Shown here piece after piece: positions 1 to 64,000 of a DNA stretch of 64,000 nt. The stretch is from a virus. Lineage: Duplodnaviria > Caudoviricetes. The DNA lies in IMG/VR virus record IMGVR_UViG_3300013800_000007, positions 5,124 to 69,123 of that record; one strand, 5' to 3'. A program made the translations under genes and the position numbers. The stretch's first letter is position 1. Each line of letters opens with the position of its first letter. The notes under the pieces are model-generated. The model was given only the letters and a program-made list of their open reading frames with translations, ran no database searches and was not told the DNA's origin.

Positions 1-461
1 CGTGCAGTCCCGAATTCAGACTCGACGGTCGCGCCCGGGTGCCGTTCGCGTGCCACCTCCTCCGCTTGCGACCGTGACGGGGCACGTGTGAAATATGAGA
101 CCTCGCCGCATTCGGACTCGACTTGCCACAGCGGCTCACCAATGCCCCAATATGCCCCGCCGCTATCATAGCCGCCGGAGTCAATGGTGACCGCTGAGAC
201 CGTGAGTCGTGGCGACTCGATGCCGCGCCCGTAATTGTTGCGCCTTCCCATTGGCGCGCCATATTTGCTCGAAACCTCAGGCAATTTAGACATTGGTCGC
301 CCTCCCTTTGCGCTTCAATATTTCGATTGCAAGCGACTGCAGGTCGCCCGGTTGCGTGTTGCTGACTAAGCGGTGCGCCGCTCGCCTAGCCTCAGGCATC
401 GGCCAATGCCGCGACCTCAGGCGATTGACGCAATCGTCAAAAACTACCTGCTGAATCAACG

Positions 462-58914: not shown

Positions 58915-58943
58915 ACCATACGATTCGCATGGTCTTTTGTCAA
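58915..58943 (-). promoter_or_regulatory. sigma70-type promoter overlapping a 20-bp palindrome
   Basis: TTGACA-17 bp-TATGGT; TGTCAACATTAATGTTGACA at 58938-58957. Confidence 0.7.
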
Positions 58944-60066: not shown

Positions 60067-60329
60067 TAGAGTCCAGTCCTCCTGATGTAGTAATGATCGC
60101 TGTAGCCGCACGGCCCACACGAGTGGGCAAATGGTATGTCGAGGCCGGCAACCGTGACGTTGGCTGCGCCCCACCCGTTACGCATGATCTCGAGTCCGGT
60201 GATCAGCATCTCGTCACCGTCCATCGTCATCTGTTTGATACCCTCGCTCACGTTGCGGAGGAGTGGAAAGTTGGGATTGCCGTATGGCTTGCCGTTGATG
60301 GTGATGCCGGTGCGTTCAGAGTCGATCAT
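60066..60329 (-). CDS. hypothetical protein
   Basis: Coupled to neighbours. Confidence 0.5.
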   Translation of the reverse strand: MIDSERTGITINGKPYGNPNFPLLRNVSEGIKQMTMDGDEMLITGLEIMRNGWGAANVTVAGLDIPFAHSCGPCGYSDHYYIRRTGL

Positions 60330-60723
60330 GTGTGGCGCCTACTATTATGGCTTTTGCTAGGGCAACCAGGTCGCTATCCGAAAATTCCGACCTTGCCGCA
60401 TTGAAGTGCCAGCAGACGAGCCGACAGTTTCTTGGTGTGTAGCCAAGGTTGACGTTCTTACGATCTATTGAGGGGGCCGCCCTGTTTTTACTTCCAATGC
60501 ATTCCAAATCAAATTTTATACCAGTAACCTCACACACACCTTTTTCAATTCTTTTCTGTATCCACTTGAGTGTAATCGAGAACTGAATGCCCTTTAGTGC
60601 AGCCCTAGACTTGGCGCGCTGCCATATTGTTTTTGCTCTACCGTATGGCTGCGATCTGTATTTTCTTGATGCACATTTTTGCCCGTCCGCCGCCTTTCTT
60701 TTCTCTCTTTTGGCGCTAGCCAT
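60316..60723 (-). CDS. HNH-like endonuclease, catalytic part
   Basis: AKSRA..CEVTGIKF..APSIDRKNVNLGYTPRNCRLVCWHFN; AAGGAG RBS. Confidence 0.75.
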   Translation of the reverse strand: MASAKREKRKAADGQKCASRKYRSQPYGRAKTIWQRAKSRAALKGIQFSITLKWIQKRIEKGVCEVTGIKFDLECIGSKNRAAPSIDRKNVNLGYTPRNCRLVCWHFNAARSEFSDSDLVALAKAIIVGATHDRL

Positions 60724-60932
60724 GTCAACGGCTCCTTAAAATTCAGCTTCTCCCTTCGGCGCGACCGTCGAGTGGCAGCTTCCATTTTTTTTAATATATC
60801 ATTGGGTATTGGCCCATTGATGGTACAGCATTCATTGCATCTCGACCTCAATCCATCTTTCGATGTGTTGTGCGCTCTGTATTGTTTCACATCCACATCT
60901 TTTCGACATGATGAGCATTTTTTCGTTACCAT
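60594..60932 (-). CDS. Zn-finger N-terminal part of an HNH-like endonuclease (separate frame)
   Basis: CSSCRK..KDGLRSRCNEC. Confidence 0.5.
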   Translation of the reverse strand: MVTKKCSSCRKDVDVKQYRAHNTSKDGLRSRCNECCTINGPIPNDILKKMEAATRRSRRREKLNFKEPLTWLAPKERKERRRTGKNVHQENTDRSHTVEQKQYGSAPSLGLH

Positions 60933-61405
60933 CTTCTTTTTGCCCCCATGTCTAGGTGGAACAACCCACACCCTCGACCACGGCAGTAGTGCGCGAAGCC
61001 ACCAGGCCACCCAACGAGATGACGAGCAGCCGCGCGCCAGTTGCCGATAATGCGAAAGTCGACCGCGAGAGACCGCGATCCGCCGCGATAGTGATAAGAT
61101 CCCCGGACATGCTTGCCCGTGCAGATGCTCGTGATAACCACACGCCCGAACGCTCCGGCCTGACGGAGTCCGTCCTGTAGGTTAGCGTGCAACGGGGCAC
61201 AGTCGCGCCCGCTCTGGGTGTGTTTGCGGTGAGCCTCGGCCGGCACAGATAGCAGGCACAGCAGACCCAGCGCGATGCAAGTGAAGCGCACGTCTATGCT
61301 GCGCTGTAGGAGGCGATCCCGACGCTTTTGCCACTTGAGCATGCGAGCGTCGGCGATCATCGCCATGAAGTACCAGAAGGCCTTGCGGGTGTGGGGGAAG
61401 CTCAT
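60926..61405 (-). CDS. peptidase M15-like (Zn D-Ala-D-Ala type) protein with signal/anchor segment
   Basis: VVITS..SYHY..LAVDF..FHLDMG; hydrophobic FTCIALGLLCLLSVPAEA. Confidence 0.7.
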   Translation of the reverse strand: MSFPHTRKAFWYFMAMIADARMLKWQKRRDRLLQRSIDVRFTCIALGLLCLLSVPAEAHRKHTQSGRDCAPLHANLQDGLRQAGAFGRVVITSICTGKHVRGSYHYRGGSRSLAVDFRIIGNWRAAARHLVGWPGGFAHYCRGRGCGLFHLDMGAKRRW

Positions 61406-61640
61406 GCTGCAGTCCTTTCCTCTCCGGCGACGAGCGGCAAGAATGGCCCAGCCAGACGGTCGACTTCGCGGCGGAGTTGCTCTTTCAGCGGGTGTTCAGG
61501 CCAGCGCTCAAGATCGATCTGCGCCGCGAGCTCGGAAGCCCTGGACACACACTCGGCCCAGGTCGGATAGATCTCGGCGAGCAGTAGCCGGTAGGCTATG
61601 CCGATAGTCACGACGGTGTGTTGTGCGATGGTGAGTTCGG

Positions 61641-61916
61641 TCACTTCGCTTTCCCCTTCATCTTGTGCCACCGCCGAATGATCATGTTCTTGGTGATCTT
61701 CTTGCCGGTGGTCTCTGATAGGTCTGCCGCGATCATCGAGGTCGATCGCAGCCGGTAGTTCTTGCGGATGTAGGCCTCCATCTCCTCCGTCCACTCGAGT
61801 CCGGGCGGGGGAGCGAAGCGTTGGCGAACGCGATGCACGACTTTGCGGATGTCCTTGCCGCGATAGATCGCGCTGCCGTGTGGTCCGCGCACAACGATGA
61901 TGTAGGGCGCTGTCAT
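61641..61916 (-). CDS. protein with GcrA-like N-terminal HTH domain
   Basis: WTEEMEAYIRKNY..STSMIAADL..ITKNMIIRRWHKM matches GcrA WTDERV..L..S.SQIA..L..VTRNAVIGKVHRL. Confidence 0.75.
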   Translation of the reverse strand: MTAPYIIVVRGPHGSAIYRGKDIRKVVHRVRQRFAPPPGLEWTEEMEAYIRKNYRLRSTSMIAADLSETTGKKITKNMIIRRWHKMKGKAK

Positions 61917-62200
61917 TTCACGAGGTCATCCCACCAGACGCGAGACACAAAGGTGGCGTTGATGCTCTCTGAGAGCTTCCCAGCGCGGTAGATGTCGTAC
62001 CAAACGACGGTGATGTCGTCCCGGCGCTCGATGCGCTCGATGCTGTCCTGGCCAACGTTGTGCCAGATGAGAATCGGCGTCTCGGTGCGGATGGCCTTGA
62101 TGCGGCGGTTCTGGTCCCCCGGCTTGCCCATGGTAACATTCAGCTTGAGCGTTTCGCGCTTTCTTACGTCTGGCCTTGCCGTAGCTTCGGTGTCCGACAT
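61913..62200 (-). CDS. hypothetical protein
   Basis: GGAGG RBS; first gene after the 62236-62264 promoter. Confidence 0.6.
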   Translation of the reverse strand: MSDTEATARPDVRKRETLKLNVTMGKPGDQNRRIKAIRTETPILIWHNVGQDSIERIERRDDITVVWYDIYRAGKLSESINATFVSRVWWDDLVK

Positions 62201-62235
62201 GCAACTCACCTCCGTCTGGTTACGAATGACGTGTC

Positions 62236-62264
62236 ATTATTCACTATGTGTGGTCAGTTGTCAA
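62236..62264 (-). promoter_or_regulatory. putative sigma70-type promoter
   Basis: TTGACA-17 bp-AATAAT. Confidence 0.5.
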
Positions 62265-63564: not shown

Positions 63565-64000
63565 AAATAAGCTCTTGGGTGGTTGATGTTGCCACTCAGA
63601 ATGCTGACGCCTTACTCAAGATGCTAATTCGTTAAAAAATTACTGTACTCAAACCCTCGATAGAAGTTCGATCGACGTACTAGTCATGTAGACAAGCGAA
63701 CAACCACAACCGACAACTATACTGTTAACCTTTTCGACAACTCAATATGTCAGTTTTTGAGGATCAGGTTGCATATATACAGCGTTCAATTCAATTTCTG
63801 GTTGACCGGAAAATGTCGTTCTGATGCCGTTCTGAGAGCTTAGAACGTCGAAAACTCCAATGAAATCAGGCGTTTGACCTTAAATACTACTGACGGGGGG
63901 GGGCACCCTTTCGCAGACACAGATCCATTCCCTGTTCTGTTCGACTATATAAGCACAAAATACTTATTCTTATTCTTATTATATATAAGGGGGGGGGAGG
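63565..64000. other. AT-rich non-coding region with G-runs (candidate origin or genome end)
   Basis: No ORF in the track; AT-rich relative to the genome; TTATTC repeats and poly-G near the end. Confidence 0.5.

Follow-up and report, generated by a model that had tools for sequence, protein, structure and literature searches.

To our knowledge, no bacterial reader of adenine methylation is better understood than GcrA, which functions solely when tethered to sigma70. The DNA-binding domain (DBD) of GcrA contacts the bases of TGATTCG through R33, N34, I37, G38, H41, and R42 and the DNA backbone through M1, W3, W15, S20 to S22, T32, K39, H41, and R42; one N6-methyl group is accommodated in a pocket formed by R33, N34, and I37 and the other in a pocket formed by G38 and N34 (PMC5887438). 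Function is impaired by N34A/I37A, R42A, and K39A, and activation on methylated DNA was severely impaired by most of a set of substitutions that fill the pockets, a set that included G38Y and G38W (PMC5887438). Phages also encode full-length GcrA homologues, such as phiCbK gp222 and its relatives, which are thought to steer host or phage transcription (PMC3556154). We found 22 phage records that carry a GcrA homologue at ≥80% coverage. The homologues of phiCbK (gp222), Brevundimonas, and Synechococcus phages cover 93 to 99% of GcrA, including the sigma70-interacting domain (SID), whereas the phage-encoded 91-aa protein described here has the DBD only.

Compared with Caulobacter crescentus GcrA (PF07750; DBD structures 5YIU, 5YIV, and 5YIW; holoenzyme structures 7YE1 and 7YE2), the 91-aa protein has a homologous helix-turn-helix (HTH) over GcrA residues 2 to 53. 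Kept from GcrA are W3, S20-x-S22, I24-A25, L28, T32, N34, V36, I37, and H41, and three changes are conservative (R33 to K, K39 to R, and R42 to K). However, several differences are apparent. Among them, the HTH is C-terminal, behind a hairpin/helix module, whereas that of GcrA is N-terminal, and the recognition helix is preceded by a loop with five additional residues.

Two other proteins are useful for comparison. One is a 303-aa metagenomic GcrA-family protein (P0031) encoded on a 53-kb contig, with a match to PF07750 at positions 2 to 151 that includes the SID (E = 2.1e-15). Outside the family of the small protein, its HTH is the nearest (38% identical over 53 aa, E = 4e-10). It has the same five-residue-longer loop and the same variant recognition motif with TKN (I-T-K-N-M-I-V-G-K in P0031), but its N-terminal extension is a different one, an HTH-like region. 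It is possible that the lineage of P0031 was the source of the small family's HTH. The other is the hypothetical protein QJA43130.1 of Phaeobacter phage MD18 (124 aa; 108218-108592), which is 60% identical to GcrA residues 1 to 50 by tblastn. Because only that part of GcrA was matched, this protein may be a DBD without a SID. In contrast to the 91-aa protein, its DBD is N-terminal and near to host GcrA, and the N-terminal module of the small family appears to be absent from it. Its gene comes right after that for DNA polymerase III epsilon, in the replication module.

The gene, its phage, and the host

The phage record is a 69,123-bp IMG/VR virus rated complete by CheckV, and the stretch analyzed here (the window, 64,000 nucleotides) comprises its bases 5124 to 69123. 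Both ends of the record are G-runs (GGGAGGGGGGG... at genome positions 1-40 and ...AAGGGGGGGGGAGG at genome positions 69090-69123, which is window 63967-64000). They may mark a homopolymer at which the assembly of a circular or permuted genome broke; the IMG/VR call is linear. The phage is temperate: its genes include one for a tyrosine integrase (PF00589, E = 1.4e-9) and another for a CI-like HTH_3 protein.

The gene for the 91-aa protein lies in an operon in the leftward early/replication region of the phage (Table 1). Its ATG shares the sequence ATGA with the stop codon of the 98-aa open reading frame (ORF) upstream, and its own stop codon overlaps the GTG of the ~80-aa ORF downstream. The best sigma70-like site of the region, at 62264-62236, is found ~50 bases 5′ of the 98-aa ORF and is likely the start of the operon. 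It bears a TTGACA-N4-ACMAY extension that is common to ~14 promoters of the phage. The start/stop overlaps together with the upstream promoter-like site place the 91-aa gene second in a translationally coupled unit. On the 3′ side of the operon are genes for an Rv2179c-like exonuclease, an HD-domain protein, a 965-aa primase-like protein, and a PIF1-type helicase. PADLOC returned nothing for the 91-aa protein or its neighbors.

Table 1. Positions of the features discussed, in window coordinates
Feature	Position	Strand	Remarks
ORF of the protein under study (P0001)	61641..61916	minus	91 aa, net charge ~+14, zero Cys
Upstream ORF	61913..62209	minus	98 aa, first in the unit; no family match
Downstream ORF	61402..61644	minus	~80 aa, GTG start; no family match
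Promoter-like site, TTGACA-N17-AATAAT	62236..62264	minus	11/12 matches
N-terminal module, residues 1-35	61812..61916	minus	Predicted hairpin strands 5-11 and 14-20, amphipathic basic helix 23-34
C-terminal three-helix HTH, residues 40-89	61650..61799	minus	Predicted helices 44-53, 59-70, and 76-89; homologous to GcrA 2-53
Recognition-helix segment, T75-K76-N77-M-I-I80-R81-R82-W-H84-K85-M	61659..61694	minus	Equivalent to GcrA T32-R33-N34-A-V-I37-G38-K39-V-H41-R42-L
GANTC/GAGTC-rich island, right part	1 to ~3277	.	Whole island at genome 1001-8400; candidate target

Two further ORFs of the minus strand lie downstream. An endonuclease-VII/HNH-type ORF (phrog_3322, E = 1e-30) is found at 60316-60723, ~1 kb from the 91-aa gene, and it overlaps the end of a Zn-ribbon-like ORF at 60594-61010 that has weak Lar-like and endonuclease matches.

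This setting raises the question of whether the 91-aa protein, instead of being a transcription factor, binds DNA as an accessory to replication or to a nearby nuclease, marking an origin or iteron region or guiding endonuclease-VII/HNH-type proteins. The gene does lie within a replication module (primase, PIF1-type helicase, and exonuclease, with an endonuclease downstream), the GcrA-like genes of cultured phages also adjoin replication genes, and the protein has a weak PHROG match to an HNH endonuclease (below). However, the gene is neither adjacent nor fused to a nuclease, its family consists of free-standing proteins of 86 to 137 aa (~30 representatives), and no conserved neighbor was found. 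We therefore regard an accessory role of this kind as highly improbable. The comparison of gene neighborhoods showed no conservation in the one other contig with context, and a metagenome scan gave only two short contigs, both without conserved neighbors and without GANTC enrichment. The phage primase, used as a query, retrieved zero related viral contigs.

The attP core of the phage (window 45869-45919) is the 3′ 50 nt of tRNA-Gly(GCC) and adjoins the integrase, with a TTGACA-N4-ACMAY promoter on either side, the two facing each other. Both aragorn and Rfam missed this partial tRNA, which was recognized by eye and then confirmed through exact matches. At least 120 stretches of contigs from bacterial genomes contain an exact copy of the 50-mer, and the listed records are almost all Alphaproteobacteria. 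Among the matches listed are Hyphomicrobium, Bradyrhizobium, Pseudolabrys, Nitrobacter, Afipia, Sphingomonas, and Roseomonas, and the orders represented in these records are Hyphomicrobiales, Sphingomonadales, and Acetobacterales. Since the attP core matches alphaproteobacterial tRNA-Gly(GCC), we take the host to be an alphaproteobacterium. GcrA and CcrM are widely conserved in Alphaproteobacteria (PMC9437464), and four of the five tRNA-matching genomes that were checked have a recognizable GcrA, the fifth having a profile match.

Relationship of the C-terminal domain to GcrA and Myb-like domains

The GcrA likeness was not detectable from the single 91-aa protein in family databases. Searches of Pfam and NCBIfam were empty at E ≤ 10, and the one PHROGs match, to the N-region of an HNH endonuclease, was weak (E = 1.4e-3). 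Pairwise BLASTP against host GcrA gave 29% identity over 55 aa (E = 6e-4, as a single comparison). A word-index search recovered a single relative, P0002 (82% identical), and GcrA was absent from the PDB matches of a profile made from these two sequences. Matches to Fab chains in the PDB were due to chance, through the word GLEW.

With the protein and P0002 as the query, HMMER was run exhaustively over 1.84 billion representatives and returned 40 proteins at E < 1e-3, of which ~30 are 86 to 137 aa long and span both halves of the query; the other matches are Myb-like repeat proteins, one repetitive artifact, and P0031. The artifact-like case is an 849-aa protein (P0004) with 11 matches through the chance word H-G-L-E-W-T, which resembles a translated repeat more than a relative. 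A match in viral contigs (locus L001) was also discarded as a false positive, because it falls within a structural protein (1,599 aa) encoded by an AT-rich phage.

The alignment of the family (A2, 32 members) has two conserved blocks. One is an N-terminal module with the pattern Y-V-V-V-R...I-x-R-G...L...R, and the other is a C-terminal HTH with the pattern W-T...Y...S-A-x-I-A...T-K-N-x-V-I-x-R-x-H. The members are ~90 to 100 aa long, and the 91-aa protein fits both patterns, scoring 109.8 bits against the A2 profile over profile positions 2 to 92.

With this profile, the relationship to GcrA became clear. First, the top PDB match was the C. crescentus GcrA DBD (5YIU, E = 1.2e-5, over its whole 49 residues), followed at lower scores by the full-length GcrA chain of 7YE1 (1.1e-4) and c-Myb (5.9e-3). 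Second, an hhalign comparison with seven host GcrA proteins plus P0031 gave a probability of 97.6% and an E value of 4.4e-12, aligning residues 37 to 91 of the protein with GcrA 2 to 53. Third, PF07750 was matched by 13 of the 32 members (best E = 9.4e-6), and no other Pfam family was recurrent; the Pfam cutoff for GcrA, 26.9 bits (equal to E = 7.3e-6), was clearly passed by no member, the best being at or just under it. Finally, in five whole alphaproteobacterial genomes the sole profile matches (E = 4e-7 to 1e-5) were in ORFs of 170 to 231 aa. Five of the seven matches, from four of the five genomes, have a recognizable GcrA N terminus, M-x-W-T-D/N-x-R-V...L-S/T/P-A-S-Q-I-A...V-T/S-R-N-A-V-I-G-K-x-H-R-L, and the aligned host GcrA set bears the Cys-rich C-terminal motif of GcrA.

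These results confirm the original prediction that the C-terminal half of the protein resembles the N-terminal HTH of GcrA. Because the single protein lies below detection and the profile matches are strong, this confirmation comes through the family only, and the proposed check against the GcrA Pfam model succeeded for the 13 family members but failed for the protein itself. All three motifs named in that prediction align: W42-T-E-E with W3-T-D-E of C. crescentus GcrA, S58-T-S-M-I-A-A-D-L with S20-A-S-Q-I-A-K-Q-L, and T75-K-N-M-I-I-R-R-W-H-K with T32-R-N-A-V-I-G-K-V-H-R. Judged from these sequence comparisons, the HTH of the 91-aa protein is homologous to the GcrA DBD.

Structure prediction with the 32-sequence alignment gave a confident AlphaFold2 model (mean pLDDT 92.6, compared to a poor 57.6 with two sequences), in which a Pro-rich link joins the hairpin/helix module to the HTH. 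Foldseek aligned the last three helices with 5YIU over 48 columns (probability 0.99, TM 0.77 by target, root mean square deviation 1.3 Å), at an E value of 0.35. VIA-align, which is independent of Foldseek, placed the small-terminase HTH of phage G20c on top (Z 8.8), followed by Cdc5 Myb (7.3) and the GcrA DBD (7.2), with many Myb, homeodomain, and resolvase HTHs at Z 5.5 to 7 and R2R3-Myb and c-Myb within Z 6 to 7.3. The modeled HTH is thus the common homeodomain-like three-helix bundle, which is not specific to GcrA; sigma region 4 was among the nearest folds in the GcrA structure paper (PMC5887438). A generic Myb or HTH as the best structural match had been named as an outcome that would speak against GcrA, and half of this was found: the GcrA DBD (Z 7.2), Myb (6 to 7.3), and terminase (8.8) matches are tied, and the sequence profiles alone favor GcrA. 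Since the fold does not separate GcrA from Myb and small-terminase HTHs, the case for GcrA is carried by the profiles.

The protein may instead be a generic Myb/homeodomain-like phage regulator whose target is unrelated to GANTC or methylation, the GcrA likeness reflecting shared HTH ancestry only. Besides structural matches to Myb, SANT, and small-terminase HTHs that equal or exceed that to GcrA, such a reading can draw on the weak PHROG match to the HNH endonuclease N-region and on the family profile itself, whose matches also include the Myb-like repeats of a helicase and of HNH endonucleases from phages (E = 1e-10 to 1e-4). The recovery of these tandem repeats by the profile means that GcrA-type and Myb-type phage HTHs are close, and the Myb/SANT-like repeats of phage HNH endonucleases and helicases indeed share the fold and the W-T-x-E-E...Y/W...I-A...L pattern with the 91-aa family. 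However, they lack the T-K/R-N-x-V-I motif, are tandem and enzyme fused, and match Myb/sigma-r4 Pfam models, whereas the 91-aa family does not. In the small protein, W42 and W83 are present, W83 at the place of the third Trp of Myb, but the middle Trp is missing; the protein matches none of the Myb Pfam models (PF00249 and relatives), and neither do any of the 32 members at E ≤ 1. The base-reading residues are unlike those of GcrA, which fits a generic regulator, but the T-K/R-N-x-V-I-x-R/K-x-H motif is common to the family and GcrA and missing from the HNH-linked repeats, and the sequence profiles favor GcrA over Myb by more than 2 orders of magnitude. A candidate target for such a regulator would be the ACMAY box, which lies four bases past TTGACA, in the spacer where a GcrA-type domain can dock, and is found in ~14 promoters, including that of the 91-aa gene. 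Taken together, we consider a generic regulator possible but doubtful.

Five of the proteins with Myb-like repeats (P0005, P0017, P0026, P0030, and P0037) are fusions of 4 to 9 tandem W-T-x-E-E-D repeats with a helicase or HNH_3 nucleases.

Members of the 91-aa family come from metagenomes only, in clusters of 1 to 3 sequences with uninformative names, two being labeled "hypothetical protein." Searches at E ≤ 1e-8 of 401 genomes from the order and 401 from the class did not recover a full-length member; two partial matches in these genomes begin at profile positions 26 to 29, in ORFs of 205 and 287 aa. A tblastn search of 50,697 phage records with the 91-aa protein and member P0015 gave no match, and a word-index search with the family profile added few members. 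The family itself, its architecture of an N-terminal module followed by a C-terminal GcrA-type HTH, and the co-occurrence with a GAGTC island (below) are new.

DNA-contact residues and the missing SID

The positions that contact DNA in GcrA are the best-conserved columns of the C-terminal module (Table 2), which argues for GcrA-like docking. N77, I80, and H84 are kept. On the other hand, both guanine-reading arginines are replaced by lysine, and the methyl-pocket residue G38 by R81. Therefore, the exact word read by GcrA and its methyl preference are not implied by the homology, and the altered specificity suggested in the original prediction is reasonable. A GANTC-like recognition core is plausible from the residues that are kept.

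Table 2. DNA-contacting residues of GcrA and their equivalents in the 91-aa protein and its family
GcrA	91-aa protein	Family (n = 32)
W3	W42	W 31
W15	Y54	Y 29
S20	S58	S 18, P 9, T 4
T32	T75	T 30
R33	K76	K 30
N34	N77	N 29
I37	I80	I/V 31
G38	R81	S 14, G 9, R 4
K39	R82	R/K 31
H41	H84	H 19
R42	K85	Variable

The absence of the SID, also claimed at the outset, was borne out. The protein stops at residue 91 without a single Cys, the linker and the zinc-finger domain of GcrA are both missing, and PF07750 had no match in any of the six frames of the whole 69-kb phage. An unrelated module of ~35 aa had been proposed to replace the SID; the family does have a conserved, different module, but it sits N-terminal to the HTH and not at the position of the SID. 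This module has a conserved aromatic/hydrophobic strand and basic residues at R10, R19, R29, and R31, with R37 in the link. Searches of Pfam, PHROGs, BFVD, and the ESM Atlas gave no match to it; in the PDB, the lists were filled by the HTH, so that coverage of the module there was slight.

Loss of the SID has clear consequences in GcrA. A fragment of residues 1 to 107 does not promote open-complex formation (PMC5887438), and GcrA without its C-terminal domain is absent from promoters in vivo by ChIP-qPCR, because it is sigma70 that brings GcrA there (PMC4647560). This means that a bare GcrA-type HTH would be a poor competitor on its own, which counts against the simple competition with host GcrA that had been suggested, and that the N-terminal module probably supplies affinity. 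Lacking the SID, the 91-aa protein cannot act as GcrA does, tethered to RNA polymerase. It probably binds DNA alone rather than activating genes in the manner of GcrA, as far as its sequence allows us to judge.

The module could also be seen as a substitute for the zinc-finger SID, contacting RNA polymerase while the HTH reads a site near the promoter, so that the protein is a functional GcrA analog that activates transcription of phage or host genes. Most of the conserved residues of the module are basic and so better suited to nucleic acid than to a protein groove, and it is unlike any RNA-polymerase-binding domain in Pfam and fold searches. These points weigh against a polymerase contact despite the conservation of the module across the family and the precedent of the complete phage homologues (PMC3556154). 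In two TTGACA promoters, at 58943 (minus strand) and 3254 (minus strand), a GANTCG is found 11 bases past the −35 hexamer, in the spacer position that GcrA uses in Caulobacter promoters, as would be expected of such an analog. Overall, we rate an activator of this type as very unlikely.

The GAGTC-rich island and a proposed mode of action

One part of the phage genome is rich in GANTC sites. The island has 74 GANTC compared to 33.9 expected (z = +7.4), whereas the rest of the phage is depleted (199 versus 326 expected, z = −7.1). Most of the island sites (65 of 74) are GAGTC or GACTC, with a bias on the plus strand of 45 GAGTC versus 20 GACTC. GAKTCG is enriched on the plus strand of the island (27 versus 8.2 expected, z = +6.7), but the Caulobacter heptamer YGAKTCG is not clearly enriched (10 versus 5.5 expected, z = 2.0). 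If the record is circular, the island starts ~3 kb beyond the 91-aa gene. The PF01555 methyltransferase is absent from the phage, so any methylation would be that of the host.

The 16-mer GAGTCGTGGCGA(C/G)TCG, with two GANTC sites 10 bp apart, is exact at window 204-219 and 1543-1558 and could be a paired site, though the statistics are weak. The 16-mer GAGTCGTGGCGASTCG was considered as a repeated operator and rejected: it has two exact copies, and its six copies at ≤3 mismatches, versus 2.55 expected, are not clearly beyond chance.

On balance, we think it somewhat probable that the 91-aa protein is a small, basic, free-standing, sequence-specific DNA-binding protein that uses its GcrA-type HTH to bind alone, as a repressor, occluder, or architectural factor, at a GANTC-like site. 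The early operon of a temperate alphaproteobacterial phage would thus produce a small, strongly basic DNA-binding protein whose C-terminal three-helix HTH appears to have descended from a GcrA-type DBD. This HTH would most likely lie in the major groove like that of GcrA, through T75-K76-N77, I80-R81-R82, and H84-K85. The hairpin and basic helix may provide, through pairing of two copies or additional contacts to DNA, the affinity that GcrA draws from sigma70. Such autonomous occupancy of a site might make the protein a repressor, an occluder, or an architectural factor. The most likely site would be GANTC-like, with the GAGTC-rich island of the phage and the GcrA-dependent promoters of the host as candidates, and, given R33K, R42K, and G38R, both the exact word and the methyl preference probably differ from those of GcrA.

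A more specific possibility is a phage-borne epigenetic switch, in which the 91-aa reader binds the ~70 GAGTC/GACTC sites in the neighboring accessory operon according to their methylation by host CcrM. Methylated incoming or prophage DNA could then be told from freshly replicated, unmethylated DNA, and the accessory operon would be switched accordingly. We regard such a switch as improbable; if real, it would be a virus-encoded epigenetic switch made from a part of the host cell cycle.

A natural family that has the reader, lacks the tether, and has gained a new module raises the questions of whether the GcrA fold can bind DNA autonomously and what use phages make of it. The protein and the GAGTC island, being present in one genome, form a concrete and testable pair. 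If binding to a GANTC-type site proves true, the protein may be useful in Alphaproteobacteria as a dominant-negative tool directed at the GcrA regulon, and it would mean that phages rebuild the parts of the host cell cycle piecemeal.
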